Shown here: positions 18,729 through 48,979 of the stretch, one piece after another
How positions within the stretch are numbered: the first letter of the stretch is position 1
Layout: each line of letters starts with the position of its first letter
Assembly: GCA_963762565.1 (NCBI GenBank)
Contig: CAVXLD010000005.1
Coordinates: 548,338 to 612,337 of the forward strand
Length of the DNA: 64,000 bases
DNA from: an uncultured Verrucomicrobiae bacterium
Lineage (GTDB): Bacteria > Verrucomicrobiota > Verrucomicrobiia > Chthoniobacterales > JAFAMB01
Reading direction: 5' to 3'
Translations under genes and position numbers: made by a program
Notes under the pieces: model-generated
Told to the model about the DNA's origin: nothing
Databases searched by the model: none
Seen by the model: the letters and a program-made list of their open reading frames with translations, nothing else

Positions 18729-18738
18729 GGTCCGCGCT

Positions 18739-19423: not shown

Positions 19424-19482
19424 TCCTGCTGTGCCTTTGGCTGCCGCTGAGCCTGATCGTTTCATTTCTTTATTCGCCGAAA

Positions 19483-30662: not shown

Positions 30663-30790
30663 GCGCGTCATCTTCGTACTCGGCTCCGGGGACGCGGAGT
30701 GTTGGAGTGATTGAGTACTGGAGTATTGGCGGCCACGTCGGACAAGCCGCTCGTTCCCCGACTTCACCATTCGCTGGGGGAAAGGCGGAA

Positions 30791-31216
30791 ATGGGCGGCA
30801 GGCTACGCTGGACAAGCCGCTCGTTACTTCCGCTGCTGGTCGCCCTAATGCTTTCCGGCTGCCAATGGCCGCAGAGCATGCTCGAGTCCAAAGCGGATGT
30901 GGAAATCGATGTTCCCTCTTCTGATATAACCAGGATTCTTTCCGTCACGAACTACCTTATGCAGCAGAATGGCTATCAAGCCGTTACTGACGCGGCGAAT
31001 CAGGAAGTTCCTTTTGTCGCTGCCCATCTCGCCAGCCGAACTAACCGGGTGCTTTGTTTTTCCAATGGCGGCCGGGATCGAATCTGGATTATCGCTCAAC
31101 CCTCTGGGCATGCTTGGACTTTGTATTGTTTGCCTGAACCCGAACGTGACGACACAAGTTTCGCGCGGCACAGGTTCCGGCAGATCTTACAATCCGTTCG
31201 CGCGGAATGCAGCTAA
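30791..31216 (+). CDS. hypothetical lipoprotein (candidate immunity/accessory protein)
   Basis: lipobox LLVALMLSGC; lies between export operon and precursor array. Confidence 0.6.
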   Translation: MGGRLRWTSRSLLPLLVALMLSGCQWPQSMLESKADVEIDVPSSDITRILSVTNYLMQQNGYQAVTDAANQEVPFVAAHLASRTNRVLCFSNGGRDRIWIIAQPSGHAWTLYCLPEPERDDTSFARHRFRQILQSVRAECS

Positions 31217-31428
31217 CCCCGGGATATAGCAAATAACAAAGCGCAGGTAGCAGGTAGGTGGCCTTTTCCAACAAGAAGAGAGGGCCGTCGCCGCTGGTCA
31301 GGGTTTGAACCGCCGTTCGTCCCAATCAGCTTGTCGGGCGGTTTTCGTCATGGCAATCTGAGTCGAAGCTTCGCCCCCCCCTTCAACTTGGCGCAGTGAG
31401 CAGCAATCAATAGCCGAGAGACACGATC

Positions 31429-31794
31429 ATGACCAAAGAAACCCTTAAGGCATTTGCCGACGCAGTGAGTAAGAGCCAGGAATTACAAAAGCAACTAGCT
31501 TTGATTCATCAGGAGACAGCGCGCTCAACTGCCGAAAAGCTGGCTAAGTTGTCTGAGAGTGCCGGGACGCCTTTTACCGCTGAGGAGTACTTGAACTCGG
31601 TGGCAGAGTCATCAGGGGAGATGTCCACCGAACAATTGCGTAGCGTGGCCGGTGGAGCTAATGAGTTTTGGTGGACATATTTTGAGTCGATTATTCCTGG
31701 TCCTAATATTGGGGTCGACTGCGCTGTCCAGAAAGTCTCGGCCATGTTTGATAGGAGTCTCTCGTTGGGTCCATGTCCCTTAAAAAAATCCTGA
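31429..31794 (+). CDS. Nif11-leader lanthipeptide precursor 1
   Basis: leader ending VAGG; core ANEFWWTYFESIIPGPNIGVDCAVQKVSAMFDRSLSLGPCPLKKS. Confidence 0.9.
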   Translation: MTKETLKAFADAVSKSQELQKQLALIHQETARSTAEKLAKLSESAGTPFTAEEYLNSVAESSGEMSTEQLRSVAGGANEFWWTYFESIIPGPNIGVDCAVQKVSAMFDRSLSLGPCPLKKS

Positions 31795-31951
31795 TTCGAC
31801 CCGCTGCGAAATTGAAGATTACTTAAACGAGAGAAATCAGTTCCGAGCCTCTAACTTTAGCCAACGCTGTCGCCGAACATTGCCGCTCAAGTTGTTGATG
31901 TGAACGACAATCAATTGACTAACAACAATCACTAACACCCGAAGCAAGATC

Positions 31952-32322
31952 ATGAGCCAAGAAAAACTACAGGCCTTCACGGAAGCCGTTAGCAAGAGCG
32001 AACAGCTGCAAACGCGATCCGCTTCGATTCAGATGGAAGGCGTCAAATCAACCGCCGAAAAGGTCGCCAAGTTGTCAGAGAGCGCCGGTACGCCTTTTAC
32101 CGCTGAGGAGTGCTTGAAGTGGGTTGCAGAGTCATCGGAGGAGATGTCCACGGAACAATTGCAGAGTGTGGCCGGTGGTGGAATCTCTTTCTCTGCCGAA
32201 GAGGTCTCAAGTTTATGAACTCGATTATAGGCAGTTTCGGTGGTACCGAATGCGCAGTCACACTGGCTCGTTCGCTCGCAGAAAAGGGTAACCCTTTAGA
32301 GTGTATACAAGTCAGAAAGTAA
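31952..32322 (+). CDS. Nif11-leader precursor 2 (1-nt deletion in core)
   Basis: restoring one G near 32203 gives core GISFSAEEGLKFMNSIIGSFGGTECAVTLARSLAEKGNPLECIQVRK, paralog of 43854. Confidence 0.85.
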
Positions 32323-32496
32323 CCTGATTTCCGACAAATGAACCGCCGCTTGTCAAGGTTTGAACCGCCGCTCGTCCCAATCACGTTGCAGAGAGCTGTT
32401 CGCCACGATAGCTGTCGCCGAACATTGCCGCTCAAGTTGTTGATGTGAGCGACGATCGATTAATTAACAACCATCAATGAGACCCGAAGCAAGATC

Positions 32497-32862
32497 ATGA
32501 GCCAAGAAAAACTACAGGCCTTCGCGGAAGCCGTTAGCAAGAGCGAAGAGCTGCAAAAGCGAGTCGCTTTGATTCAGGCGGAAGCCGCCAAATCGACCGC
32601 CGAAAAGCTCGCCAAGTTGTCTGAGAGTGCCGGTACGCCTTTTACCGCTGAGGAGTACTTGAAGTCAGTGGCGGAGGCATCCGACGAGATGTCTGCGCAA
32701 CAATTGGAGCGAGTGTCCGGTGGAGCTTGGGAGCCGAATAGCAGAAACATTCTTATGTCTATTTTTACTTTGGGCAGCGCCTGTGCCATCTCTGCGCTGG
32801 AATCGGCGATAGGGGGAGATGTCGATAAGTGTCAGATAAAGCCTCTTGGTCGAGGGAGATAA
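32497..32862 (+). CDS. Nif11-leader precursor 3
   Basis: core AWEPNSRNILMSIFTLGSACAISALESAIGGDVDKCQIKPLGRGR. Confidence 0.92.
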   Translation: MSQEKLQAFAEAVSKSEELQKRVALIQAEAAKSTAEKLAKLSESAGTPFTAEEYLKSVAEASDEMSAQQLERVSGGAWEPNSRNILMSIFTLGSACAISALESAIGGDVDKCQIKPLGRGR

Positions 32863-33334
32863 CTGACCGTGCCAGGCGCCCAGGCTGAAGAGTATTTCGA
32901 GAGCGAGGGTCGCGGTTTCCTGCCCTCGGACCACTACCAGCGGCATGCCGGGTGCTCTGGAGTCGATGAACATACCCGGACCGGCTAGTCCGATGGCTTC
33001 CCTCAGAGAGGACTGGCTACCTCGTTCATTGCTCATTCCCTATATGAGGCGGCATAGCAAATAGCAAATTGAGGTTGGCTTCCTCGAACTATTTTCTAAA
33101 CATTTGCCATCGACTTTGCTGTCCTGGATATCTCGCGCACGCTGCAGAAGGACAAGAATCTGCAAGCGTTTTTCCGAAACGGCACGAGATATTCAGGCTA
33201 CATCTGAATCGCCGTTCGTCAGGGTTTGAACCGCCGCTCGTCCCACTCCGGTTGCTGGGCGTTTCTCGCCGCAATAATCTAGCCGCACATCGACACGCAA
33301 TATTGATCATGTGAGCAACAACCATTTAATAAAG

Positions 33335-33422
33335 AACGACCGCCGAAAAGCTCGCCAAGTTGTCCGAGAGTGCCGGTACGCATTTTACCGCCGAGGAGTA
33401 CTTGAAAACGGTGGCAGAGTCC
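33335..33422 (+). pseudogene. internal Nif11 leader fragment
   Basis: TTAEKLAKLSESAGTHFTAEEYLKTVAES without start or core. Confidence 0.75.
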
Positions 33423-33449
33423 ACAATCGATAAAACGAGAAGCAAGATC

Positions 33450-33812
33450 ATGAGCCAAGAAAAACTAAAGGCCTTCGCGGAGGCCGTTACCAAGAGCGAA
33501 GAGCTGCAAAAGCGAGTCGCTTTGATTCAGATGGAAGCGGTCAAATCGACCGCTGAAAAGCTGGCAAAGTTGTCCGAGAGTGCCGGTACGCCTTTTACCG
33601 CTGAAGAGTACCTACGGTCAGTTGCGGAGTCGTCAGAGCAGCTTTCCACGGAACAATTGCGTAGTGTGGCCGGTGGTGGAGACAACCTTATTGACGACAC
33701 ATTTGGCGAAATTCTGCTTTCGGCTTTAAAAGGTTTTAGTAACAACTGCGTAATTGACGCGGCTCGTTCGATCGTAGATCCTAAGCCCGGCTTCGGGTGT
33801 TTATTCCCTTAA
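33450..33812 (+). CDS. Nif11-leader precursor 4
   Basis: core GDNLIDDTFGEILLSALKGFSNNCVIDAARSIVDPKPGFGCLFP. Confidence 0.92.
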   Translation: MSQEKLKAFAEAVTKSEELQKRVALIQMEAVKSTAEKLAKLSESAGTPFTAEEYLRSVAESSEQLSTEQLRSVAGGGDNLIDDTFGEILLSALKGFSNNCVIDAARSIVDPKPGFGCLFP

Positions 33813-33869
33813 TGACTGTTGGCTAACGACACCAACATGGGGGCGCGAGGTTCGGCTCAGGTTGCCATC

Positions 33870-34079
33870 GTGATTTGCTGCCTCGAGAAGCAGCTCGATT
33901 CGGCCGCATCGGCCACAGCACAGATGGCTTGCCGGGAAATTTGGTCCCGCCGTGGCGTCGCCCACTGCAGCCTGTATTTCCTCTCGAACCTCAGGCGTCC
34001 CACCGCCGAACTGGGCCAGTCTGCCAAGACCGATACCTGCCGGACCTGCACACCACCCGTACATGAACGCTTTCTGGCC
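33870..34079 (-). pseudogene. inverted fragment of a lanM paralog (cyclase WCxG..CCG region)
   Basis: 70 codons, 59 identical to LanM residues encoded at 48563-48772. Confidence 0.88.
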
Positions 34080-34375
34080 TTGCTCGCCGATAAGTGTCAA
34101 TAGGGACATGAAATTAGCCTGCAGACTCATGTCCCCTGTCGGTATGGCCAGTGCGATCACGCGGTGAGTCAGACAGATGCCAGTTTTGCGCTGGCAGAAC
34201 GCCTCAATGCCCACATCTGAGCCGCCGCTTGTCAGGGTTTGGACCGCCGCTCGTCCCAATCAGGTTGCTGGGAGCAGTTCGTCACGGTAGATATGACCGA
34301 ACATTGCCGCCCAAGTTGTTGATGTGAGCGATAATCAATTTATTAACAACCATCAATAAGACCCGAAGCAAGATC

Positions 34376-34729
34376 ATGAGCCAAGAAAAACTCCAGGCCT
34401 TCGCGGAGGCCGTTAGCAAGAGCGAAGAGCTGCAAAAGCGATTCAATTCGATTCAGGTGGAAGCCGCCAGAACGACCGCTGAAAAGCTGGCCAAGTTGTC
34501 TGAGAGCGCCGGCACGCCTTTTACCGCTGAGGAGTACTTGAATTCAGTGGCAGAGTCATCAGAGGAGATGTCCGCGCAACAATTGCATAGCGTGGCCGGT
34601 GGAGTTTGGGAGCCTTCGTTCGGCAACATTTTTACCTCTATCATGAGTGTAGGGTTAGGGTGCGCAATCGCGGCGGCCGGTTCGGCCATAGAGCGGGGAG
34701 GCGTTGATAACTGCCAAATTAAGTTTTAA
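34376..34729 (+). CDS. Nif11-leader precursor 5
   Basis: core VWEPSFGNIFTSIMSVGLGCAIAAAGSAIERGGVDNCQIKF. Confidence 0.92.
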   Translation: MSQEKLQAFAEAVSKSEELQKRFNSIQVEAARTTAEKLAKLSESAGTPFTAEEYLNSVAESSEEMSAQQLHSVAGGVWEPSFGNIFTSIMSVGLGCAIAAAGSAIERGGVDNCQIKF

Positions 34730-34942
34730 AGGACAGCAGGCAGATGCCAGTTTTGCGTTGGCAGGACGCCTCAATGGCTACATCTGAGCTGCCGCTTGTC
34801 AGGGTTTGGACCGCCGCTCGTCCCAATGAGGTTGCCGGGAGCAGTTCGTCACGGTAGATGTGGCCGAACATTGCCGCCCAAGTTGTTGATGTGAGCGATA
34901 GTCAATTTATTAACGACCATCAATAAGACCCGAAGCAAGATC

Positions 34943-35284
34943 ATGAGCCAAGAAAAACTCCAGGCCTTCGCGGAGGCCGTTAGCAAGAGCGAAGAGCTGC
35001 AAAAGCGAGTCGCTTTGATTCAGATGGAAGCGGTCAAATCGACCGCTGAAAAGGTCGCCAAGTTGTCAGAGAGTGCCGGCACGCCTTTTACCGCTGAGGA
35101 GTACTTGAAATCGGTGGCAGAGTCATCAGAGGAGATGTCCACGGGACAATTGCGTAGCGTGGCCGGTGGAGCCTACGAATTTGCGGACTTTGTCAAGACG
35201 CTTGCTATGGAGGGCGGGTGCGTGTTGCAAGCGATTTCGGCCATAGCACGGATTTCCAAAGAAGGCCCCAAACTCCCCTGTTGA
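34943..35284 (+). CDS. Nif11-leader precursor 6
   Basis: core AYEFADFVKTLAMEGGCVLQAISAIARISKEGPKLPC. Confidence 0.92.
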   Translation: MSQEKLQAFAEAVSKSEELQKRVALIQMEAVKSTAEKVAKLSESAGTPFTAEEYLKSVAESSEEMSTGQLRSVAGGAYEFADFVKTLAMEGGCVLQAISAIARISKEGPKLPC

Positions 35285-35360
35285 TACGGCCAGTGCGATC
35301 ACGCGGTGAGTCAGACAGATGCCGGTTTTGCGCTGGCCGAACGCCTCAATGGCCACATCT

Positions 35361-35434
35361 GAACCGCCGCTTGTCAGGGTTTGAACCGCCGCTCGTCCTA
35401 ATCAGGTTGCCTGCGCAGCTAGCCACGGTAATCT
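35361..35434 (+). promoter_or_regulatory. representative LytTR-type promoter: GAACCGCCGCTTGTC-N7-GAACCGCCGCTCGTC, then TTGCCT-16-TAATCT
   Basis: 22-bp period direct repeat (35361, 35383) directly upstream of sigma70-like -35/-10 hexamers. Confidence 0.7.
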
Positions 35435-35496
35435 AGCCCGATTTGGTCGCCCCAAGTGGGCGATGCGAGCAGAGTTAATAGACGAAAGACACCATC

Positions 35497-35856
35497 ATGA
35501 GCAGACAAACCCTTACGGCATTTGCCGAGGCAGTGAGTAAGAGCCAGGAATTACAAAAGCAATTGGCTTCGATTCATCAGGAAATAGCTCAGTCAAGAGC
35601 AGAGAAGCTGGCCGAGCTATCCGAGAGTGCCGGTACCCCGTTTACTGCTGAAGAGTACCTACGGTCAGTTGCGGAGTCGTCAGAGCAGCTTTCCGCGGAA
35701 CAATTGCACACAGTAGCCGGCGGAGTGTGGGAACCGTCGTTTGAGAATGTTTTCACGTCTTTAATCATGCTTGGCGTAGGTTGTGCCGGGGCTGCGATAG
35801 CCTCGGCAGCACAAGGGAACGTGGACAAATGCCAACCTGAAAAATGGCCGACTTAA
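35497..35856 (+). CDS. Nif11-leader precursor 7
   Basis: core VWEPSFENVFTSLIMLGVGCAGAAIASAAQGNVDKCQPEKWPT. Confidence 0.92.
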   Translation: MSRQTLTAFAEAVSKSQELQKQLASIHQEIAQSRAEKLAELSESAGTPFTAEEYLRSVAESSEQLSAEQLHTVAGGVWEPSFENVFTSLIMLGVGCAGAAIASAAQGNVDKCQPEKWPT

Positions 35857-35901
35857 ACAAACTATCAATTAACAACAATTAATAAGACGAGAGACAAGAT
35901 C

Positions 35902-36258
35902 GTGAGCCAAGAAAAACTCCAGGCCTTCGCGGAGGCTGTTAGCAGGAGCGAAGAGCTACAAAAGCGATTCGCTTCGATTCACGCGGAAGCCGCCAAGTCA
36001 ACCGCTGAAAAGCTCGCCAAGTTGTCTGAGAGTGCCGGTACCCCCTTTACTGCTGAAGAGTACCTACGGTCAGTTGCGGAGTCGTCAGAGCAGCTTTCCG
36101 CGGAACAATTGCATACAGTAGCCGGCGGAGTGTGGGAACCGACGGCGGACAATATTGTGCTCTCTACGTTAACCTTTGGCATAGCTTGTTGGGGAGCAGC
36201 GGTGCTCTCGGCACTATCGAAAGGGGACCCTGACAAATGCCAAATTGCGAAGCGCTAG
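35902..36258 (+). CDS. Nif11-leader precursor 8
   Basis: core VWEPTADNIVLSTLTFGIACWGAAVLSALSKGDPDKCQIAKR. Confidence 0.92.
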   Translation: MSQEKLQAFAEAVSRSEELQKRFASIHAEAAKSTAEKLAKLSESAGTPFTAEEYLRSVAESSEQLSAEQLHTVAGGVWEPTADNIVLSTLTFGIACWGAAVLSALSKGDPDKCQIAKR

Positions 36259-36308
36259 ACTTGAACAAACTATCGGTTAAAAACAATTAATAGACGAAAG
36301 ACACCATC

Positions 36309-36683
36309 ATGAGCAAACAGACCTTTACGGCATTTGCCGAGGCAGTGAGTAAGAGCCAGGAATTACAAAAACAATTGGCTTTGATTCAGCAGGAAATAGC
36401 TCAGTCAAGAGCAGAGAAGCTGGCCGAGTTATCCGAGAGTGCCGGTACCCCCTTTACGGCTGAAGAGTACCTACGGTCAGTTGCAGAGTCGTCAGAGCAG
36501 CTTTCCGCGGAACAATTGCATACAGTAGCTGGCGGAGTGTGGGAACCGTCGCCTAAGAATATTGTCGGCTCTATATTCATGCTTGGCATAGGTTGTGGCA
36601 TAGCTGCGGCGATCTCGGCAGGAAAAGGGGACGTCGACCAATGCCAACTTGGATCAGGTCCGATGGGTGGCGCCCCTACTTGA
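36309..36683 (+). CDS. Nif11-leader precursor 9
   Basis: core VWEPSPKNIVGSIFMLGIGCGIAAAISAGKGDVDQCQLGSGPMGGAPT. Confidence 0.92.
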   Translation: MSKQTFTAFAEAVSKSQELQKQLALIQQEIAQSRAEKLAELSESAGTPFTAEEYLRSVAESSEQLSAEQLHTVAGGVWEPSPKNIVGSIFMLGIGCGIAAAISAGKGDVDQCQLGSGPMGGAPT

Positions 36684-36761
36684 TTACAGGGCCGAAGTAA
36701 ATAGCCCCAGACGTGAACAAACTATCAATTAACAACAATTAATAAGACGACAGGCAAGAAC

Positions 36762-36800
36762 ATGAGCCAAGAGAAACTCCAGGCCCTCGCGGAGGCTGCC
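36762..36800 (+). pseudogene. truncated precursor start
   Basis: MSQEKLQALAEAA interrupted by an inverted cassette. Confidence 0.75.
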
Positions 36801-36959
36801 ATTGCGAGAAACGCCCGGCAACCGGATTGGGACGAGCGCCAGCCCAAACCCTGACAAGCAGCGATTTGAAGCTAGCCCTTGAAGAGGTCCGCCAGGGGAG
36901 AGTTGCCACCGCCTTAAATACCGCCCATGCTTCCGCCTGGGCGTTACAGGGTGTCAGCG

Positions 36960-37307
36960 CTAACTAGTTGGGTCACATGAGGGGTCGTTTCCTCCCAGCA
37001 CGGCCGAACCTATCGCAACGGCAAAACAGCCAACAGCGAAAGAGGCAAATGAAATGGCTATCGCCACCCCAATGTTAACGCCACCGGACACATTCCGCAA
37101 TTGGTCCGCTGACAACTCCGGTGAAGACTCTGCCACTGACTGCAAGTACTCCTCGGCAGTAAAGGGTGTACCTGCACGCTCGGACAACTTCGCTATCTGC
37201 TCGGCTGTCGATCTCGCAACTTCCACTTGAACCGAAACCAATCGTTTTTGTAGCTCTTCGCTCTTGCTAACCGCTTCGGCAAAGGCTTGTAGCTTTTCTT
37301 CGTTCAT
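36960..37307 (-). CDS. Nif11-leader precursor 10 (inverted, divergent)
   Basis: core VNIGVAIAISFASFAVGCFAVAIGSAVLGGNDPSCDPTS. Confidence 0.92.
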   Translation of the reverse strand: MNEEKLQAFAEAVSKSEELQKRLVSVQVEVARSTAEQIAKLSERAGTPFTAEEYLQSVAESSPELSADQLRNVSGGVNIGVAIAISFASFAVGCFAVAIGSAVLGGNDPSCDPTS

Positions 37308-37504
37308 AATCGGGTTGTTTATCGTTTGTTCTGATTGTTGCTCACATTACCAACTTTTGGCGGCGATGTGAGGCGAGATTACGATGACGAAAAACGCCTG
37401 GCAATCTGATTGGGACGAGCGGCGGTTGAAACCCTGACAAACGGCGACGCAGATGTAGCCCTTAAAGAGGTCTGCCAGCGGAAAGCTAATATCGCCCAAT
37501 GCTG

Positions 37505-37576
37505 GTTGCGGAGTCGTCAGAGCAGCTTTCCGCGGAACAATTGCATACAGTTGCCGGCGGAGAAGGGAAACCGACG
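37505..37576 (+). pseudogene. leader 3' fragment
   Basis: VAESSEQLSAEQLHTVAGGEGKPT fused to the next cassette. Confidence 0.75.
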
Positions 37577-37754
37577 TACCAGTTTTGCGCTGGCAGAACG
37601 CCTCAATGGCTACATCTAGGCCGCCGCTCGTCAGGGTTTGAACCGCCGCTCGTCCCAATCAGGTTGCCTGCGCAGTTAGCTAGAGTAATCTAGGCCGATT
37701 CTGGTCGCCCCGAGTGGGCGATGCGAGCAGAGTTAATAGGCGAAAGGCACCATC

Positions 37755-38117
37755 ATGAGCAAAAAAACCCTTACGGCATTTGCCGAGGCAGTGAGTAAGA
37801 GCCAGGAATTACAAAAACAATTGGCTTTGATTCAGCCGGAAATAGCTCAGTCAAGAGCAGAGAAGCTGGCCGAGCTATCCGAGAGTGCCGGTACCCCCTT
37901 TACTGCTGAAGAGTACCTACGGTCAGTTGCGGAGTCGTCAGAGCAGCTTTCCGCGGAACAATTGCATACAGTAGCCGGCGGAGTGTGGGAACCGACGGCG
38001 GAGAATATTCTGGCCTCTATATTCTTCATTGGGCTAGGTTGTGCCATGGCTGCGGGACTCTCGGCAGGAAACAAAGGGGACGTGGACAAATGCCAATTTA
38101 CTGGTCGGATGTGGTAA
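37755..38117 (+). CDS. Nif11-leader precursor 11
   Basis: core VWEPTAENILASIFFIGLGCAMAAGLSAGNKGDVDKCQFTGRMW. Confidence 0.92.
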   Translation: MSKKTLTAFAEAVSKSQELQKQLALIQPEIAQSRAEKLAELSESAGTPFTAEEYLRSVAESSEQLSAEQLHTVAGGVWEPTAENILASIFFIGLGCAMAAGLSAGNKGDVDKCQFTGRMW

Positions 38118-38211
38118 CCGCCCTTCGGCTTGATTACAGGGCCGAAGTAAATGGCCCCAGACTTAAACAAACTATCAATTAACAACAATTAATAAGACGA
38201 GAGACAAGATC

Positions 38212-38586
38212 ATGAGCCAAGAAAAATTCCAGGCCTTCGCGGAGGCTGTTAGCAAGAGCGAAGAGCTGCAAAAGCGATTCGCTTCGATTCAGGTGGAAGC
38301 CGCCAAGTCGACCGCCGAAAAGCTCGCCAAGTTGTCCAAGAGCGCCGGTACACCCTTTACGGCTGAGGAGTATCTACGGTCAGTTGCAGAGTCGTCAGAG
38401 CAGCTTTCGGCGGAACAATTGCATACAGTAGCCGGCGGAGTGTGGGAACCGACGGCTGGGAATATTTTGGGCTCTATATTCACCATTGGCATAGGTTGTG
38501 CCGCGGCGGTGGCAGTCTCGGCGGCATTCGAAGGGGACGTGGACAAATGCCAACTTGGAAAAGGGCCCGTGACTACGGGCGGCTAA
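38212..38586 (+). CDS. Nif11-leader precursor 12
   Basis: core VWEPTAGNILGSIFTIGIGCAAAVAVSAAFEGDVDKCQLGKGPVTTGG. Confidence 0.92.
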   Translation: MSQEKFQAFAEAVSKSEELQKRFASIQVEAAKSTAEKLAKLSKSAGTPFTAEEYLRSVAESSEQLSAEQLHTVAGGVWEPTAGNILGSIFTIGIGCAAAVAVSAAFEGDVDKCQLGKGPVTTGG

Positions 38587-38813
38587 TGCAATTCTCGGAT
38601 GTAAGCCTTAGATGTAACCAGTTTTGCGTTGGCAGAACGCCTCAATGGCCACATTAGAGCCGCCGCTTGTCAGGGTTTGGACCGCCGCTCGTCCCAATCA
38701 GGTTGCCGAGAGCTGTTCGCCACGATAGATGTCGCCGAACATCGCCGCCCAAGTTGTTGATGTGAGCGACAATCAATTAACTAACCACCAGCAATAAGAG
38801 TCGAAGCAAGATC

Positions 38814-39170
38814 ATGAGCCAAGAAAAACTACAGGCCTTCGCGGAAGCCGTTAGCAAAAGCGGAGAGTTGCAAAAGCGATTTAATTCGATTCAGATGGAA
38901 GCCGCCAGATCGACCGCCGAAAAGCTAGCCAAGTTGTCCGAGAGTGCCGGGACGCCTTTTACCGCTGAGGAGTACTTGAAATCGGTTGCAGAGTCAGCAG
39001 AGGAGATGTCCACAGAACAATTGCATAGTGTGGCCGGTGGAGTTTGGGAGGCGAATTTTAAAAACATTTTTGACTCAATTATTAGTGCTGGCATCGCGTG
39101 CATAATCCACGCGGCTGTCTCGGCAGGACATCTGGGCGACGTGGATAAGTGTCAACCTTCAAGATCTTGA
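38814..39170 (+). CDS. Nif11-leader precursor 13
   Basis: core VWEANFKNIFDSIISAGIACIIHAAVSAGHLGDVDKCQPSRS. Confidence 0.92.
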   Translation: MSQEKLQAFAEAVSKSGELQKRFNSIQMEAARSTAEKLAKLSESAGTPFTAEEYLKSVAESAEEMSTEQLHSVAGGVWEANFKNIFDSIISAGIACIIHAAVSAGHLGDVDKCQPSRS

Positions 39171-39264
39171 TTCGACTCAGCGCGAAATCGAGATTTTTCG
39201 AACGAGAGAAACCTGTTCCGAGTCTCCAACGTTAACCAACGATTGATAAACGAGGGAGCAACCC

Positions 39265-39482
39265 TCGAGCACAGAAAAACTTCAGGCCTTCGCGGAGGCT
39301 GTTAGCAAGGGCGAAGAGCTACAAAACAATATATTTCGATTCAAGTCGAAATAGCCAGATCGACCGTCGAAAAGCTCGCCGAGTTGTCAGAGAGTTCCGG
39401 TACGCCCTTTTACCGCTCAGGAGTACTTGAATTCAGTGGCAAAGTCATCAGAGGAGGTGTCCACAGAACAATTGCGTAGTGC
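39265..39482 (+). pseudogene. decayed Nif11 leader (no start, indels, core deleted)
   Basis: STEKLQAFAEAVSKGEELQ...STEQLRS joined directly to next cassette. Confidence 0.8.
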
Positions 39483-39664
39483 GACACGGGCACTTTTGCG
39501 CTGGCCGAACGCCTCAATGGCCACATCTGAACCGCCGCTTGTCAGGGTTTGGACCGCCGCTCGTCCCAATCACGTTGCCTGCGCGGTTAGCCACGGTAAT
39601 CTAGCCGTATTTCGTCGCCCCAAGTGGGCGATGCGACAGCAATTAATAGATGAGAGACAAGAAC

Positions 39665-39982
39665 ATGAGCCAAGAAAAACTAAAGGCCTTCGCGGAGGCT
39701 GTTAGCAAGAGCGAAGGGCTGCAAAAGCGATTCGCTTCGATTCAGGTGGAAGCGGCCAAATCGATCGCTGAAAAGCTGGCCAAGTTGTCCGAGAGTGCCG
39801 GTACGCCTTTTACCGCTGACGAGTACTTGCACTCGGTGGCAGAGTCATCAGAGGAAATGTCCGCGCAACAGTTGCAGAGCGTGGCGGGTGGAGTTTTTTT
39901 GGAGCAGTCGCCGGTCGAAAACATCCTGACCTCTACCTTTGAGCAGGTCGCTGGTGATTACCAATTCAAGAGTTGCGGATAG
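39665..39982 (+). CDS. Nif11-leader precursor 14 (short, single-Cys core)
   Basis: core VFLEQSPVENILTSTFEQVAGDYQFKSCG. Confidence 0.85.
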   Translation: MSQEKLKAFAEAVSKSEGLQKRFASIQVEAAKSIAEKLAKLSESAGTPFTADEYLHSVAESSEEMSAQQLQSVAGGVFLEQSPVENILTSTFEQVAGDYQFKSCG

Positions 39983-40133
39983 AATAATCCCTTAACGATG
40001 AGCGAGCCGCAGCAGCCGCACGATGATTTCAACTAGGGTCACGTCTTAACGGGCTGTTGCCGAAATGGATCATTACCCGGCAAGATCACAAAGTTCACAA
40101 AGACGGACTTTTTGAACAGAAGTTCTGTCGACC

Positions 40134-40637
40134 TTACTTTTGTTCCAGAAGCGGCAGTATCTCGGACTCGAAAACCCCCTGGCTCACGGCGCCTAGATGA
40201 GACGTGACGATGTTACCTTTGCGATCGAGGACAAAGGTTACCGGGACGGCGGTGACACCTCCATAATCGGCTGCGGTTTTTTCGTGGCCAAGTACGACCG
40301 GATAATTAATTCCGACCTGCATCACAAATGGCTTCACATCAGACGCTTCAGTCTCCACAGAAATACCTATCACGGTCAATCCTTGGGCAGCATACTTTTT
40401 CTGCAGTGCAATAAATCCTGGGATCTCCACTCGGCACGGCGGGCACCAGAACGCCCAAAAATCTAAAATCACAACTCTCCCTTTAAAGTCGGAAAGCTTC
40501 ACAGTTTTGCCGTCGAGATCATTTAGTTGCCACTCTGGAGCTTGGGTTGTGGCTGCGTTTGCCCGGTATAGCGGGCCCTCGAACAAAAGGATTCCGGCGA
40601 CCGCAACGCCAATAGAGAGATAAAAATTCCTGCTCAT
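40134..40637 (-). CDS. TlpA/ResA family thiol-disulfide redoxin
   Basis: signal peptide, LSDFKGRVVILDFWAFWCPPC, VPVTFVLDRKG. Confidence 0.9.
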   Translation of the reverse strand: MSRNFYLSIGVAVAGILLFEGPLYRANAATTQAPEWQLNDLDGKTVKLSDFKGRVVILDFWAFWCPPCRVEIPGFIALQKKYAAQGLTVIGISVETEASDVKPFVMQVGINYPVVLGHEKTAADYGGVTAVPVTFVLDRKGNIVTSHLGAVSQGVFESEILPLLEQK

Positions 40638-40904
40638 AAACGGATAGCAGTTTTATAGCCTATAGAACCATGCTGCGCACCAATTATTCCCACGACACCC
40701 ACTCTAAAAACCTCGAACAATGAAGGGTCCGTTGATCATTTGTTGTGGAACCCTAGTTTCTTCGCCTTCTTTAAATCACAGGAAGCCGCTTTACCGTCGC
40801 CAAGCACATGATAGGCATAGCCTCGACTGTGGTAAGCTCGGTCCAGGTCCGATTTGAGTCGAACGGCTTCGGTGTAATATCGGCAATGGCCCTTTCGTAC
40901 TGTC

Positions 40905-41774
40905 TCAGAATGAATCGCTCTTGACGGCGAGTCCGATGGGTCCGGGCAGCCCTTTGATGAAGCTGGGGCTAATCGCGGCTCCGGTGGTGGCGTCGTATTT
41001 GCCAACCGTGCCGACGAATTCGTTCGCCACGAAGAGGATGTTGCCCGACACCGCGAATCCTTCGGGTCCGGGCAGCCCTGTGATGAAGTTGGGGCTAATC
41101 GCGGCTCCGGTGGTGGCGTCGTATTCGCCAACCGTGTTGTCTGCGTTCGCCACGAAGAGGATGTTGCCCGACACCGCGAGTCCGACGGGTCCGGGCAGCC
41201 CTTTGATGAAGCTGGGGCTAATCGCGGCTCCGGTGGTGGCGTCGTATTTGCCAACCTTTTTGCCTGCGTTCGCCACGAAGAGGATGTTGCCCGACACCGC
41301 GAGTCCTTCGGGTATGCTCAGCCCTGTGATGAAGTTGGCGTTAATCGCGGCTCCGGTGGTAGCCTCGTATTTGCCAACCGTGTTGCCTGCGTTCGCCACG
41401 AAGAGGATGTTGTCCAACACCGCGAGTCCGATGGGTCCGGGCAGCCCTGTGATGAAGCTGGGGCTAATCGCGGCCCCGGTGGTGGCGTCGTATTTGCCAA
41501 CCTTGTTGCCTGCGTTCGCCACGAAGAGGGTGTTGCCCGACACCACGAGTCCTTGGGGTATGCTCAGCCCGGTGATGAAGCTGGCGTTAATCGCGGCTCC
41601 CGTTTTGGCGTCATATTTGCCCACGACCCCAATGAGTGGGCTTCCAGCAAACCCGGTGACATACAGCTGTGCGCAGGCGTTTCTTGGCATGGCCCAAAGC
41701 GCGGCAGCGGCGATAAGAAATGCGTATAAAGCGCGCAAAAGGGGCCCCCAATTTGAGGTGAGGGTTGTCTTCAT
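40905..41774 (-). CDS. secreted tandem-repeat (beta-propeller-like) protein
   Basis: signal peptide then six 41-aa repeats GKYDATTGAAISPSFITGLPGPxGLAVSGNILFVANAGNTV. Confidence 0.8.
   Translation of the reverse strand: MKTTLTSNWGPLLRALYAFLIAAAALWAMPRNACAQLYVTGFAGSPLIGVVGKYDAKTGAAINASFITGLSIPQGLVVSGNTLFVANAGNKVGKYDATTGAAISPSFITGLPGPIGLAVLDNILFVANAGNTVGKYEATTGAAINANFITGLSIPEGLAVSGNILFVANAGKKVGKYDATTGAAISPSFIKGLPGPVGLAVSGNILFVANADNTVGEYDATTGAAISPNFITGLPGPEGFAVSGNILFVANEFVGTVGKYDATTGAAISPSFIKGLPGPIGLAVKSDSF
40921..41620. repeat. 123-bp coding tandem repeat, six units
   Basis: unit anchors at 40981, 41107, 41230, 41353, 41476, 41599. Confidence 0.9.
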
Positions 41775-42189
41775 GGCTTTGTTCTGTCTTGGTTCAGCGT
41801 GAAAGTGAAAAGTCGGTGCTTGGCCGCCCGGCTGAGCAGATCAATTGTCGAATCGCGTACACATTCAACCAGCGGAGTATTGCCGATGAGCGAGAGAATC
41901 GCCTGGTTTTTTAGGGGAGTTGCTTGGAGGGCGCCGGAACCCATGTAATGAGTTTCCAGCCGGGACACAAGCTGTGTCAAGCAAGATAGTTCAAGGTTCA
42001 AAGTTCGACGTTCCAAGTTCCAGGCTACATTTGAGTCGCCGCTTGTCAGGGTTTGGACCGCCGCTCGTCCCAATCAGGTTGCCGAGAGCTGTTCGCCACG
42101 GTAGATGTCGCCGAACATCGCCGCCCAAGTTGTTGATGTGAGCGACAATCAATTAACTAACCACCATCAGTAAGACTCGAAGCAAGATC

Positions 42190-42549
42190 ATGAGCCAAGA
42201 AAAACTACAGGCCTTCGCGAAAGCCGTTAGCAAGAGCGAAGAGTTGCAAAAGCAATATCTTTCGATTCAAGTCGAAATAGCCAAATCGAGCGCCGAAAAG
42301 CTCGCCAAGTTGTCAGAGAGCGCCGGGACGCCTTTTACCGCTGAGGAGTACTTGAACTCGGTGGCAGAGTCATCAGAGGAGATGTCCACAGAGCAATTGC
42401 ATCGTGTGGCCGGAGGACTTTCCGCAGCGGAAGAAATTTATATTGCGTCGTCTATATTGACTGCGGGCATGACTTGTTGGGTTAAGGCGATCGTGTCGGC
42501 CTCAACTCAGGGTGGCGCCGAAAAATGTGTTGAATTACCCGGACTTTAG
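42190..42549 (+). CDS. Nif11-leader precursor 15
   Basis: core LSAAEEIYIASSILTAGMTCWVKAIVSASTQGGAEKCVELPGL. Confidence 0.92.
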   Translation: MSQEKLQAFAKAVSKSEELQKQYLSIQVEIAKSSAEKLAKLSESAGTPFTAEEYLNSVAESSEEMSTEQLHRVAGGLSAAEEIYIASSILTAGMTCWVKAIVSASTQGGAEKCVELPGL

Positions 42550-42775
42550 CAACTTCAACCCGCTACTCAGGTGTAGTTTTCGAGCAAGTAACAAATGGCA
42601 CTATTCCGGTACTCCAATAATCCGTCACCCTGTTTTTGCGTGATGAGATGGAGGGCGAAACGCCTCATGAAATGGAGGGATTGCCTGCGTGTCTAGGACC
42701 CCAGCTGACTGCCGAAATCCGACGTTGCCCCCTCTCCCCCTTTAGCTATGTCGGACAAGTTTGGAGGACAACCCC

Positions 42776-42871
42776 ATGAGGCGACCTAACTTCCAACAAC
42801 AGAAGACCCATCGCGAGGTTTGCGGCGATGCCAGTTTTGCGTTGGCAAAACGCCTCGATGGCGACATCTGA
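42776..42871 (+). pseudogene. internally deleted mini-NHLP ORF (31 aa)
   Basis: GGAGG RBS; MRRPNFQQQKTHREVCGDASFALAKRLDGDI joins the NHLP N-terminus to its C-terminus. Confidence 0.7.
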
Positions 42872-43023
42872 GTCGCCGCTTGTCAGGGTTTGGACCGCCG
42901 CTCGTCCCAATCAGGTTGCCGGGAGTTTTTCGCGACGGTAATTTCGCTGAACATTGCCGCCCAAGTTGTCGAGATGAACGACAATCAATTAATTAACAAC
43001 AATCAAAGACGAGAAACAAGATC

Positions 43024-43380
43024 ATGAGCACAGAAAAACTCCAAGCCTTCGCGGAAGCTGTTGGCAAGAGCGAAGAGCTGCAAAAGCGCGTGGCTTCGAT
43101 TCAGGCGGAATCCGCCAGAACGACCGCCGAAAAGCTCGCCAAGTTGTCCGAGAGTGCCGGTACGCCTTTTACCGCTGAGGAGTACTTGCACTCGGTGTTA
43201 GAGTCATCGGAGGGGATGTCCGCGCAACAATTGCATAGCGTGGCCGGTGGAGTTTGGGACCCGTCGGCCACGAACATTGTCACCTCTATCTTTTCTGCAG
43301 GCATAGTGTGCGGACTCTTTGCGACCGCTTCAGCCATTGGGAAGGGAGACGCTGATCAGTGCCAAGTTAAGATGGGATAA
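43024..43380 (+). CDS. Nif11-leader precursor 16
   Basis: core VWDPSATNIVTSIFSAGIVCGLFATASAIGKGDADQCQVKMG. Confidence 0.92.
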   Translation: MSTEKLQAFAEAVGKSEELQKRVASIQAESARTTAEKLAKLSESAGTPFTAEEYLHSVLESSEGMSAQQLHSVAGGVWDPSATNIVTSIFSAGIVCGLFATASAIGKGDADQCQVKMG

Positions 43381-43603
43381 GTGCCAAGTTAAGATTTAAG
43401 TAAAGACAGCACTACCCGCGCAGTTAGCAACTTCAACCCGCTACTCGGATGCAATTCGAGCAAGTAACAAATGGCAGTACTCCGGTACTCCAAGAATCCC
43501 TTACTCTGCTTTTGTATGATGAGACGGCGACGAAGCACCTGATGAACTGGAGGGATTGCGTCTCCAGGACCCCAGTTGACTGTCGAAATTGGAGGACAAC
43601 CCC

Positions 43604-43698
43604 ATGAGGCGACCTAACTTCCAACAACAGAAGACCCATCGCGAGGTTTGCGGCGATGCCAGTTTTGCGTTGGCAAACGCCTCGATGGCTACATCTGA
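43604..43698 (+). pseudogene. second mini-NHLP copy (1-nt deletion)
   Basis: near-identical to 42776-42871, one A shorter near 43675. Confidence 0.65.
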
Positions 43699-43853
43699 GT
43701 CGCCGCTTGTCAGGGTTTGGACCGCCGCTCGTCCCAATCAGGTTGCTGAGAGCTGTTTGCCAGGATAGCCGTCGCCGAACATTGCCGCCCAAGTTGTTGA
43801 TGTGAGCGACAATCAATTAACTAACAACCATCAATAAGACCAGAAGCAAGATC

Positions 43854-44225
43854 ATGAGCCAAGAAAAACTGCAGGCCTTCGTAGAAGTCGTTAGCAAGAG
43901 CGAAGAGTTGCAAAAGCGATTCAATTTGATTCAGATGGAAGCGGTCAAATCGACCGCTGAAAAGCTGGCCAAGTTGTCCGAGAGTGCCGGTACGCCTTTT
44001 ACCGCTGAGGAGTACTTGAAGTCGGTGGCAGAGTCATTAGAGGAGATGTCCACGGAACAATTGCGTAGTGTGGCCGGTGGTGAATTCTCTCTCTCTGCTG
44101 ATGAGGGTCTCAAGTTTATGAACTCGATTATAGGTAGTTTCGGTGGTAGCCAATGCGTAGTCACGCTGATTCATTCGCTCGCAGAAAAGGGCAACCCTTT
44201 AGAGTGTATACCAGTTAGAAAGTAA
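43854..44225 (+). CDS. Nif11-leader precursor 17
   Basis: core EFSLSADEGLKFMNSIIGSFGGSQCVVTLIHSLAEKGNPLECIPVRK. Confidence 0.92.
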   Translation: MSQEKLQAFVEVVSKSEELQKRFNLIQMEAVKSTAEKLAKLSESAGTPFTAEEYLKSVAESLEEMSTEQLRSVAGGEFSLSADEGLKFMNSIIGSFGGSQCVVTLIHSLAEKGNPLECIPVRK

Positions 44226-44253
44226 CCTGATAAATAAGACCCGAAGAAGGATC

Positions 44254-44360
44254 ATGAGCCAAGAAAAACTCCAGGCCTTTGCGGAAGCTGTTCGCAAGAG
44301 CGAAGCGTTGCGAAAACGATTCGCTTCGATTCAGTAGGAGGCCGCCGAAAAGCTCGCCAC
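44254..44360 (+). pseudogene. truncated precursor with in-frame stop
   Basis: MSQEKLQAFAEAVRKSEALRKRFASIQ* fused to next cassette. Confidence 0.8.
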
Positions 44361-44527
44361 GGCCACATCTGAACCGCCGCTTGTCAAGGTTTGGACCGCC
44401 GCTCGTCCCAATCAGGTTGCCGAGAGCTGTTCGCCACGATAGATGTCGCCGAACATTGCCCCTCAAGTTGTTGGTGTGAGCGACGATTAATTAAGTAACA
44501 ATCATCAATAAGACCGGAAGCAAGATC

Positions 44528-44884
44528 ATGAGCCAAGAAAAACTACAGGCCTTCGCGGAAGCTGTTAGCAAGAGCGAAGAGCTGCAAAAGCGATTCAATT
44601 CGATTCAGGTGGAAGCGGCCCGAACAACCGCTGAAAAGCTGGCCAAGTTGTCTGAGAGCGCCGGTACGCCTTTTACCGCTGAGGAGTACTTGAATTCGGT
44701 GGCAGAGTCATCAGAGGAGATGTCCGCGCAACAGTTGCATGGCGTGGCCGGTGGAGTTTGGGACCCGTCGTCCCATAACATCTTAGTCTCTATCGGTACT
44801 TTAGGCTTAGGGTGTGCACTCAAGGCGATCATTTCAGCCGCGGAGGGAGACGTTGATAAGTGCCAAATGAAGCGGCCAACTTAA
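44528..44884 (+). CDS. Nif11-leader precursor 18
   Basis: core VWDPSSHNILVSIGTLGLGCALKAIISAAEGDVDKCQMKRPT. Confidence 0.92.
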   Translation: MSQEKLQAFAEAVSKSEELQKRFNSIQVEAARTTAEKLAKLSESAGTPFTAEEYLNSVAESSEEMSAQQLHGVAGGVWDPSSHNILVSIGTLGLGCALKAIISAAEGDVDKCQMKRPT

Positions 44885-44979
44885 GTAAAGGCAGCATTAG
44901 CCGCGTAGCGGACTGCCGAAATCCGACGTCGCCCCATCTCCCCCTTTAGCTATGTCGGACAAGTTTGGAGGACTACCCC

Positions 44980-45285
44980 ATGAGGCAACCTAACTTCCAA
45001 CAAATGACCCGTCGCGAGATCGAAGATTACATGATCGAAAGAAGCTTAGTAGATCCAGAGTTTCGTGCTCGTCTGATCGAAAATCCACGTGAGACGGTAT
45101 CTGGGCTCGGGTTGCCGGTGGGCGCAGACGTCAAGATTCAAGTATTGGTAGAAGAACCCGACTCGTTCTGCATCGTACTGCCGCGAGTCCTGCGGGAGTC
45201 GCATGAACTCCCTGCGGAAGCTTTGAGCGATATAGCCGGTGGCGGCAGCTTTCCTCTGGCAGATCTTTTCAAGGGTTACATCTAA
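44980..45285 (+). CDS. NHLP (nitrile hydratase-like leader) precursor peptide
   Basis: TRREIE..IERSLVDPEFRARLIENPR..IQVLVEE..IVLP..EL..EALSDIAGG; 13-aa core GSFPLADLFKGYI. Confidence 0.9.
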   Translation: MRQPNFQQMTRREIEDYMIERSLVDPEFRARLIENPRETVSGLGLPVGADVKIQVLVEEPDSFCIVLPRVLRESHELPAEALSDIAGGGSFPLADLFKGYI

Positions 45286-45339
45286 GTCTTAGATCCGAAA
45301 ATTAGATCTGCAGTTCCGAAATGCACGAGAAGTAAGATC

Positions 45340-45681
45340 ATGAGCAAAGAAAAACTCCAGGCCTTCGCCGAGGCGGTTAGTAGAAGCGAAGAGCTACAAA
45401 AACGATTGGCTGAAATTCAGGTGGAAACCGCTAGGTTGACAGCCGAGAAGATGGCCAAGTTGTCTGAGAGCGCTGGTATCCCCTTCACCGCAGAGGAGTA
45501 TTTGAAGTTGGTGGCAGAGTCATCAGTGGAGATGTCAGCAGAACAATTGCAGAGCGTGGCCGGTGGAAAAGCTGGGGAATCAGCTGTCAGAGAGACTACT
45601 TACCCTTGGGAACCAGGGTGTAACAATACGCGCGTTACGGTTTTGCAGGGAGTTGAGTGTTTGCCGAAACCGGCGCTGTAA
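45340..45681 (+). CDS. Nif11-leader precursor 19
   Basis: core KAGESAVRETTYPWEPGCNNTRVTVLQGVECLPKPAL. Confidence 0.9.
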   Translation: MSKEKLQAFAEAVSRSEELQKRLAEIQVETARLTAEKMAKLSESAGIPFTAEEYLKLVAESSVEMSAEQLQSVAGGKAGESAVRETTYPWEPGCNNTRVTVLQGVECLPKPAL

Positions 45682-45765
45682 ATTGCCGACAAGTCCGACC
45701 TCGTTAGCAGCGATTCTGCCTAAACCGAACTTCGTCGCCCAAATGGGCGCTGTGAGCAGCAATCA

Positions 45766-48700: not shown

Positions 48701-48979
48701 ATTTTCCCGGCAGGTCATCTGTGTTGTGGCCGATGCGGACGGATAGAACTGCTTCTCGAGGCGGCCAATCGTCTCACCGACAATACACTGCGAGATGCAG
48801 CGGTCTCCCAGGCGATACTGCTCGAATCGCAGGCTCAGGAATCAGGATTTTATGCGCTAAACGGAGCCGATCGCGGCCGGCTGTTTGCGCCTTCTTTTTT
48901 TCAGGGCACTTCCGGCATAGGCTATACATTTCTCCGGATACTGAACCCTCAATTACCTTCCGTTCTATCGTTAGGCTAG
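45766..48979 (+). CDS. lanM: class II lanthipeptide synthetase LanM, CCG (ProcM-like) type; one frameshift near 46250
   Basis: dehydratase GDSH, LVYKPR, TDLHQENVIA, IDLETLF; cyclase DLYGG, GFGHGAAG, WCTG, LCCG, FFQGTSGIGY; about 1070 codons when joined. Confidence 0.95.

Follow-up and report, generated by a model that had tools for sequence, protein, structure and literature searches.

A single-locus array of Nif11-leader precursors with a conserved Ser/Cys register beside a class II lanthipeptide synthetase in a Verrucomicrobiae bacterium

The locus and its core register

The window, a stretch of 64,000 nucleotides from contig CAVXLD010000005.1 of an uncultured Verrucomicrobiae bacterium (assembly GCA_963762565.1), contains one compact plus-strand cluster, which runs from a LytTR regulator through an export trio, an outer-membrane factor, and a lipoprotein-like open reading frame (ORF) to 19 precursor genes and the synthetase LanM. 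The 19 genes, which have Nif11-type leaders, lie between 31429 and 45681 and were translated from the window by coordinate; all copies of these genes in the 6.1-Mb genome were confined to this one locus. The leader consisted of 76 residues ending in V[A/S]GG in 19/19 genes and was followed by a core of about 40 residues. Against Pfam Nif11 (PF07862) it scored 24.6 bits, slightly over the cut-off of 23.8, and it stayed below the cut-off of TIGR03798. A bifunctional LanM, with dehydratase and LanC-like cyclase domains, stands beside the precursors, which places the locus among the class II clusters, and the gene content is that of an ordinary class II lanthipeptide system of the Nif11-leader type, with a ProcM-like LanM and an NHLP exporter.

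An earlier note on this DNA had claimed that the cores keep a fixed spacing of Ser and Cys while varying everything else. The spacing itself was reproduced, as 12 of the 19 cores matched S.{7}C.{6}S.{8,9}C, precisely those of the genes starting at 32497, 34376, 35497, 35902, 36309, 36960 (minus strand), 37755, 38212, 38814, 42190, 43024, and 44528. Three more differed in the first loop only (33450, S-x8-C; 43854, S-x9-C; 31952, S-x9-C in an out-of-frame continuation), and all three then continued as C-x6-S-x9-C. The count of 18 of 19 cores with exactly two Cys holds if 31952 is read through its frameshift and becomes 17 of 19 for the genes as called, where 31952 has no Cys and 39665 has one. 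In the 17 two-Cys cores, each Cys was preceded by a Ser/Thr, as read directly from the core sequences. The proposed start and end motifs stood for most register cores and not for all, with W2, P4, N8, and I9 at the start and G32, D33, D35, K36, C37, and Q38 at the end present in 10 of the 12.

Shuffled cores gave a mean of 0.005 register matches, and at most one in any of 20,000 rounds, versus the 12 observed. The excess carries no weight of its own, since the homology of the 12 cores extends over their full length: they aligned over about 38 residues without difficulty, with a mean pairwise identity of 48% in the core versus 79% in the leader. Judged by their sequences, the 12 register cores belong, as tandem paralogues, to a single family of class II lanthipeptide precursors, with at least three further cores as its looser relatives. 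It is nearly certain that they form one paralogous core family whose register is conserved across clusters. A Pfam search of seven cores at E≤10 returned noise only (PsbX, E 0.1; DUF3918, E 0.27), with none reaching the cut-off.

Conservation outside the register was analyzed in cores from other samples, obtained from a profile search of 5.8 billion proteins, the query profile of which included the core, so that the list is enriched by construction. At E≤0.001, 186 proteins matched the family profile; among the best 120 of the 186, there were 106 parsed cores from outside the window, of which 64 had the strict register and 98 had exactly two Cys. Exactly two Cys were found in 100 of 108 external cores. 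The claim that everything but the register varies was not borne out. About 12 further positions were conserved in 50–64 of 68 external register cores, namely W2 (53), P4 (50), N8 (54), I9 (62), I13 (55), Ser/Thr15 (63), G17 (61), A24 (64), A28 (57), G32 (54), D35 (52), and Q38 (54), and the variation was limited to one helical face and two short stretches.

A further count of hydroxyl residues, which did not presuppose Ser, covered 90 external cores whose two Cys are 14–20 residues apart. Ser/Thr was found at Cys1-8 in 74, at Cys1+7 in 88, and at Cys1-5 in 71 of the 90, and at every other listed offset in no more than 15. There are three conserved hydroxyl sites for two Cys. The hydroxyl residue at Cys1-8 was Ser in 73 of its 74 cases, and the one at Cys1-5 was Thr in 45 and Ser in 26; where position 27 of the external cores was not Ser, it was Thr in four of the six exceptions. 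In the window, S12 was present in 12/12 register cores and Ser/Thr at Cys1-5 in 9/12, the other three having M, M, and F. The codons of S12, C20, S27, and C37 showed synonymous variation without any amino-acid change.

The conserved face of the core

Entropy along core positions 6–30 had a sharp period near 3.6 residues, with a peak at 95 degrees that none of 5000 shuffles reached. When S12, C20, and S27 were left out, the peak was reached in the external set by 7/5000 shuffles for positions 6–30 and 13/5000 for positions 8–33, and in the 12 cores of the window by 0/5000 and 10/5000, respectively. An AlphaFold model computed with 74 family members as input predicted a single helix over core positions 6–30 (pLDDT, the predicted local distance difference test, about 80), which was the best part of a model that was poor overall (mean pLDDT 66; predicted template modelling score 0.26). 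The hydrophobic middle described in the earlier note was supported as well, the cores being apolar and helix-like: their Kyte-Doolittle maxima over 19 residues were 1.4–2.4, as apolar as a membrane span, and they were neutral to slightly acidic.

The conserved face consists of I9, S12, I13, G17, C20, A24, S27, A28, and G32, flanked by W2/P4/N8 and D35/C37/Q38. The register Ser and Cys lie on this face together with a stripe of small residues, which recur every 3–4 positions (G17, A21, A24, A28, and G32), and the variable residues lie on the opposite face. The S-x7-C-x6-S-x8/9-C spacing is kept because of shared ancestry and purifying selection on one face of an apolar helix of about 25 residues, while the other face and two short stretches evolve rapidly.

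Homologous clusters

Two metagenome contigs were syntenic with the window. Contig L020 carried the exporter, the outer-membrane protein, the lipoprotein ORF, about six precursors, the NHLP-type peptide, and an intact LanM of 1071 residues (94% identical), and contig L024 carried the lipoprotein ORF, three or four precursors, and a LanM of 1078 residues (78% identical). Sought in these homologous clusters, as the earlier note had proposed, the register persisted, and register members were kept in L020, L024, and many metagenome proteins. Close relatives of LanM (76–92%) came solely from metagenome contigs and one metagenome-assembled genome labelled Chthoniobacterales, and the next tier was at 42–47%. 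The sequencing runs with near-identical DNA were mostly labelled soil metagenomes, and a few homologues carried the Chthoniobacterales label.

The hidden Markov model of the family matched none of 40 relative genomes (5 of the genus, 19 of the family, and 16 of the order), a set in which many close relatives are incomplete, and none of 400 genomes drawn from the phylum. A register pattern scan of the contigs of species-representative genomes found no relative either.

Duplication and selection

Sequence comparison within the array suggests that it grew by tandem and segmental duplication. The pair 35497/35902 matched the pair 37755/38212 as segmental duplicates, and the leaders of 35902 and 38212 were mosaic, combining one N-terminal type with the C-terminal half of the other type.

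Pairwise Nei-Gojobori estimates over all paralogues were saturated in the core (proportion of synonymous differences, pS, 0.6) and were replaced by closest pairs and maximum-likelihood codon models. The models (iqtree, GY+F3X4) were fitted to 23 family genes, 12 from the window and 11 from other loci, and the conserved and variable core codons were defined beforehand from the external protein set. The ratio of non-synonymous to synonymous rates (dN/dS, omega) was 0.27 for the leader, 0.96 for the whole core, 0.29 for the 19 conserved core codons, and 2.2–2.6 for the 19 variable core codons; for the last, twice the log-likelihood difference (2dlnL) against omega = 1 was 23. Among eight independent closest pairs, omega was 0.24 in the leader versus 0.98 in the core (Fisher p 1.8e-6). 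In the closest pairs the synonymous divergence of the core was twice that of the leader, which hints at leader homogenisation.

In the comparison of leader and core named in the earlier note, the leader was constrained (about 0.25) and the core far less so, the core as a whole reaching about 1. The further suggestion of that note, selection on function, is tentative: omega exceeded 1 solely for the pre-defined variable half, on saturated data, and an arms race over targets or immunity would be a further conjecture. Diversifying selection on one half of the sites, combined with strong constraint on the other, would produce such a whole-core omega near 1.

Gene by gene organization of the array

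All genes of the array are on the plus strand unless stated otherwise. The first precursor (31429–31794) has two Cys outside the register. The second (31952–32322) is frameshifted after the leader, and its core continues in another frame (ORF 32110–32322) as S-x9-C-x6-S-x9-C; its region belongs to repeat family D10 and is 91% identical to 44106–44231. A register member at 32497–32862 is followed by a precursor with S-x8-C-x6-S-x9-C at 33450–33812, to which a leader fragment is fused upstream (33333–33421). On the minus strand at 33801–34259 lies a remnant of the LanM C-terminus (Pfam LANC_like, E 3.8e-4), the translation of which is near-identical to the cyclase end of LanM. This inverted fragment comprises the last 70 or so conserved residues including the CCG motif and is a trace of past rearrangement inside the array.

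Next come a register member (34376–34729), a precursor with two Cys outside the register (34943–35284), and three consecutive register precursors between 35497 and 36683 (35497–35856, 35902–36258, and 36309–36683), of which only the first is preceded by an upstream repeat pair. The register precursor at 36960–37307, on the minus strand, is without the Trp-Glu-Pro start. Two register precursors at 37755–38586 (37755–38117 and 38212–38586) are the segmental duplicate of 35497/35902, and another register member follows at 38814–39170. The short precursor at 39665–39982 has one Cys and only the N-terminal part of the family, with near-identical forms elsewhere (P0113). After an insert, described below, the array continues with a register precursor of divergent start and end (42190–42549), a register member (43024–43380), a precursor with S-x9-C-x6-S-x9-C (43854–44225), a register member (44528–44884), and a last precursor with two Cys outside the register (45340–45681). 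A leader remnant lies downstream of lanM on the minus strand (49198–49332).

The array thus contains 19 genes and at least five remnants, and its close relatives have 4–6 genes. Remnants and frameshifted copies were found at 31952, 33333–33421, about 39268–39495, and 49198–49332, in addition to the LanM fragment at 33801–34259. Real decay is present in the array outside lanM, as seen in the LanM fragment and several leader remnants.

The insert (40134–41774, minus strand) consists of a ResA/TlpA-like periplasmic thiol-disulfide oxidoreductase (40134–40637) and an NHL/beta-propeller repeat protein (40905–41774) that bears five 123-nt tandem repeats. It is missing from L020, where a NosD-like beta-helix protein occupies the corresponding place, and by this comparison it is outside the conserved cluster. 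The oxidoreductase was considered as a dedicated disulfide-forming part of the conserved cluster and rejected, L020 being without it.

LanM and its split frame

The gene for the class II lanthipeptide synthetase LanM (45766–48979, plus strand) encodes a CCG zinc motif and scored 654.6 bits against TIGR03897 (cut-off 304), with Pfam matches to DUF4135 and LANC_like. The CCG motif aligned to CHG of LicM2 (PDB 6st5) and was kept in L020 and L024; in the descriptions of ProcM-like enzymes it is their three-Cys zinc site (PMC10783134, PMC8524650). The genome also contains, on another contig, a second, unrelated LanM plus a LanC. On contig 9 of the genome (L001, 5386–9107) there is a second, unrelated class II lanthipeptide locus, where short precursors with Gly-Gly leaders accompany a LanM of 1028 residues and a sigma-54 activator.

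In this assembly the two parts of lanM are 88% and 94% identical to the intact LanM of L020, and the run of C at the break between them is 2 nt shorter than in L020. A contig from run X1 (229 nt, depth 3), which differed at one other base (99% identical), had CC inserted at the break, restoring the frame, and a relative of about 95% identity in run X5 also had two extra bases there that restored it. The frameshift is probably an assembly error or a strain variant. Programmed -1 frameshifting at an A-rich run was rejected, as the frames need +1/-2 and the relatives have two more bases. The deficit in the C run is a warning that homopolymer errors may also lie behind further frameshifts of the 15-contig assembly, such as that of gene 31952.

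Regulator, export genes, and flanking sequences

The cluster begins with a LytTR-type response regulator (21853–22695, plus strand), which scored 50.9 bits against Pfam LytTR, its receiver domain scoring 24.6 bits, below the cut-off. The three adjacent genes of an NHLP/Nif11 bacteriocin export trio follow on the same strand, and each of them exceeds its curated cut-off: a HlyD-like adaptor (22701–23825; NCBIfam TIGR03794, 262.7 bits versus 156.2), an ATP-binding cassette (ABC) exporter with a C39 peptidase domain (23741–25993; TIGR03796, 1016 bits versus 853; Pfam Peptidase_C39, ABC_membrane, and ABC_tran), and a second ABC exporter subunit without the peptidase domain (25990–28878; TIGR03797, 825 bits versus 709). 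The C39 domain of the exporter is presumed to cut the leader after Gly-Gly. A TolC-like outer-membrane efflux protein is encoded at 28875–30662 (plus strand; Pfam OEP, 105 bits).

The lipoprotein-like ORF (30659–31216, plus strand) has the same place in L020 (7826–8383) and L024 (1066–1596), so that in all three clusters it stands between the outer-membrane gene and the first precursor. It has no Pfam or NCBIfam match and consists of a lipobox followed by a conserved domain of about 120 residues; counted from the lipobox Cys, the L024 copy shares 66% identity. The product is a candidate for a role in immunity or as an accessory of export.

An NHLP-leader peptide with a Cys-free tail of 13 residues after Gly-Gly is encoded at 44965–45285 (plus strand; TIGR03793, 56.9 bits versus a cut-off of 50.9). 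It is kept in L020 (13088–13408) and in L021 (from 917), and its tail, in contrast to the lanthipeptide cores, is nearly the same in each cluster. Pieces of it were also observed at 42703–42799 and about 37440–37480, the latter upstream of the minus-strand precursor. It would be pure speculation to regard the tail as a secreted signal to the LytTR regulator.

Just upstream of the cluster (window 15181–20791), an integrase, an AbiEii/AbiEi toxin-antitoxin pair, and an M78 peptidase gene were observed. The first part of the window had a fraction of G and C of 0.59–0.61, and the precursor array one of 0.52–0.54. A genomic island may contain the cluster. An Rfam scan of 30500–50000 gave no matches. 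Scans for sigma-70 promoters (5 sites versus 8.3 expected) and terminators (21 versus 19.1 expected) were not informative, and RNA contigs of run X20 covered just two 151-nt pieces of lanM, which has no bearing on expression.

A direct repeat upstream of the precursors

The direct repeat CGCCGCTYGTC (repeat family D9) formed 14 pairs between 31289 and 44407, 13 on the plus strand and one on the minus strand, with a spacing of exactly 22 bp (for example, 42037–42069). Each pair was located 110–218 nt before a precursor start codon and was oriented as that gene. The motif had 31 matches versus 4.7 expected, and none of 100 shuffles reached 31. No pair was found before the exporter genes or lanM. 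Among the precursors without a pair, four start about 50–100 nt after the preceding gene, and the fifth, 31952, starts 158 nt after 31794.

LytTR-regulated class II bacteriocin loci have Gly-Gly-leader pheromones, and regulators of the AlgR/AgrA type are associated with 9-mer direct repeats. Because a LytTR regulator heads the cluster, and given this background on LytTR direct repeats, the 22-bp-spaced repeats are probably operator sites of that regulator, for which they are candidates. As in such bacteriocin loci, the cluster opens with the LytTR gene, the structural genes are preceded by paired repeats with a spacing of about two helical turns, and a short Cys-free Gly-Gly-leader peptide is conserved. 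Unlike in those loci, no sensor kinase was identified beside the window regulator, whose receiver domain scores below its cut-off.

Discussion

The best overall explanation of the locus, and one we regard as probable, is a single lanthipeptide family with a fixed scaffold that is ringed and exported. The ProcM-like LanM, with its three-Cys CCG zinc site, would dehydrate the conserved Ser/Thr and then add both Cys, most simply S12 to C20 (a 9-residue ring) and S27 to C36/37 (a 10–11-residue ring). The C39-ABC exporter would cut after Gly-Gly and, together with the second ABC subunit and the HlyD and outer-membrane partners, would secrete apolar, slightly acidic peptides acting on membranes, and the repeat pair that most units carry upstream would bind the LytTR regulator of the cluster. 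From the sequences, the placement of both Cys in thioether rings is somewhat favored, and the exact S12-C20 and S27-C37 connectivity is tentative and leans toward doubtful. ProcM-type enzymes are described as making rings of 11–14 residues, with 11 in ProcA3.3 and 12–14 in SyncA6 (PMC8524650), so that rings of 9 and 10–11 residues would be within their reach.

Several observations weigh against this explanation. The leader scored 25.2 bits against TIGR03798, under the cut-off of 32.3, though the match was full-length. Bridges from i to i+8 or i+9/10 are incompatible with a regular helix, which implies that the helix matters only before or during modification, for substrate recognition and ring selection, that other bonds are formed in the end (position 15 to Cys20), or that the Cys lie outside thioethers. 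Cys1 could equally well pair with the third conserved Ser/Thr, at Cys1-5, and this site is the basis of an unlikely alternative, in which the same enzyme and family make other rings: Cys1 would bridge the Thr/Ser five residues upstream in a 6-residue ring of ordinary size, S12 would stay dehydroalanine or Cys1 would attack S27 in the C-to-N direction, and the register would mark conserved residues and not ring partners. The external cores conserve the two sites about equally (71/90 at Cys1-5 and 74/90 at Cys1-8; 9/12 at Cys1-5 in the window), and SyncM is described as forming rings in both directions, with the substrate sequence setting the pattern (PMC8524650, PMC8163290). However, the M, M, and F of three window register cores leave no hydroxyl at Cys1-5 where S12 is present in 12/12, and the preference for Ser at position 12 (73/74) fits a lanthionine donor as well as dehydroalanine. 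The occurrence of exactly two Cys in nearly all cores (100/108 external cores and 17/19 in the window) also suits a disulfide. With the helical conservation, the predicted helix of membrane-span length, the small residues of G17, A21, A24, A28, and G32, and the ResA/TlpA-like oxidoreductase inside the array, it would suit final cores that are not lanthipeptides but helical membrane-active peptides with Cys free or disulfide-linked, where the conserved Ser, Gly, and Ala would be small residues packing along one face, and LanM would serve other cores or stop at dehydration. We consider this improbable, since in each of the three syntenic clusters LanM lies after the precursors, the non-Ser residue at position 27 is Thr in 4/6 exceptions and not Ala or Gly, the oxidoreductase is missing from L020, and two Cys 16–17 residues apart in a single helix are too far from each other for a disulfide without a hairpin.

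The state of lanM also counts against a working system. In this assembly it is split over two frames, with the break at 46244/46245 in the C run (46244–46249), and its correction rests on the one 229-nt, depth-3 contig of X1, possibly from the source sample. Together with the remnants and frameshifted copies in the array and the LanM fragment at 33801–34259, the break could indicate a decaying relic with fragmentary genes, in which the register reflects duplications too recent to diverge. This is very improbable: two extra bases restore the frame in both X1 (99% identical) and X5 (about 95%), and close LanM homologues are all 1059–1091 residues long. The paralogues are old, with 0.47–0.63 synonymous differences per site and yet four invariant ring residues, the omega of the leader is about 0.25, and the same scaffold occurs in many other samples. 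With regard to selection, the whole core was indistinguishable from omega = 1 (2dlnL 0.14; binomial p 0.6 for the closest pairs), the trees were saturated, with a length of 40–49 substitutions per codon, the genes showed signs of recombination, and the omega above 1 rests on sites picked for high entropy in a related protein set. Because of this saturation, recombination, and choice of sites, the evidence for diversifying selection is only suggestive, and we regard such selection on the variable face as evenly balanced between true and false.

In several respects the explanation as one ringed and exported family brings the locus close to the prochlorosins and synechococsins (ProcM, SyncM; ProcA/SyncA): one CCG LanM serves many precursors, here 19 genes and remnants, and the long conserved Nif11-type leaders end in Gly-Gly and are much more conserved than the cores. 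The cores of prochlorosins are described as almost all unique and unrelated (PMC8163290, PMC10783134), and the contrast that the earlier note had drawn with these widely varying cores agrees with those descriptions. Unlike them, 12–15 of the 19 window cores belong to one homologous family with a fixed scaffold, and the hypervariable, unrelated cores that are one defining mark of prochlorosins were not found here. The window also differs in that its relatives come from soil metagenomes, a few of them labelled Chthoniobacterales, and not from marine picocyanobacteria, in that its precursors are all in one locus, and in that its LanM is at most 47% identical to anything outside its own small clade.

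The account of Nif11/NHLP leaders and their genomic grammar by Haft, Basu and Mitchell in 2010 (PMC2887384), as far as it was available, does not describe this core family. The window resembles the clusters described there in bringing together the export trio, LanM, paralogous Nif11-type precursors, and an NHLP-type peptide, and adds to them an outer-membrane factor, the conserved lipoprotein ORF, and a LytTR regulator, together with the operator-like site that recurs before the precursor genes. Literature searches at the level of the topic, none of them on the core motif itself and without supplementary files, found no Nif11-leader lanthipeptide family from Verrucomicrobiota and no conserved two-ring scaffold of the S-x7-C-x6-S-x8/9-C kind.

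The synthetic bicyclic libraries based on ProcA2.8 are reported to present side-chain variants on two non-overlapping rings made by one tolerant LanM (PMC8163290). The earlier note proposed the same for the window, with many variants on one scaffold. In contrast to those man-made libraries on a short prochlorosin, the window has a natural scaffold of about 38 residues, far more apolar and with putative rings. The enterococcal cytolysin subunits and lichenicidin beta are described as apolar class II lanthipeptides whose long helical stretches are believed to cross or disrupt membranes (PMC8163290). The window core is similarly predicted to be helical and has helical conservation, a resemblance that is physico-chemical only: no sequence similarity of the cores to cytolysin or lichenicidin beta was found, and no alpha/beta pairing is evident, the family members being all of one type. 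Those peptides have short, helix-compatible rings, whereas the window register would give rings of 9–11 residues.

The interest of the family lies in the pattern of a frozen face and a variable face and in the size of the array. If the Cys lie outside thioethers, it would be an ordinary bacteriocin-like gene family beside a LanM. A natural scaffold library, that is, a lineage-restricted group of membrane-span-length lanthipeptides of soil Verrucomicrobiota with a frozen face and a diversifying opposite face, is a rather doubtful extension of the data. If it is true, a dozen forms of a single stapled helix are exported by one genome, which may assemble into mixed oligomers or be fitted to targets that vary, a strategy opposite to that of the prochlorosins, which vary the ring pattern itself. 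Multi-precursor lanthipeptide systems serve as templates when peptide libraries are made, and why natural systems have so many precursors is an open question; the family is a possible comparison case, with prochlorosin-like enzyme and export in which one scaffold is kept and one face is changed. Should the rings and the helix be confirmed, it would provide a bicyclic or stapled scaffold of about 38 residues that is natural and has been tested by evolution, at least 12 variants for target or immunity specificity, and a first handle on the lanthipeptides of soil Verrucomicrobiota.

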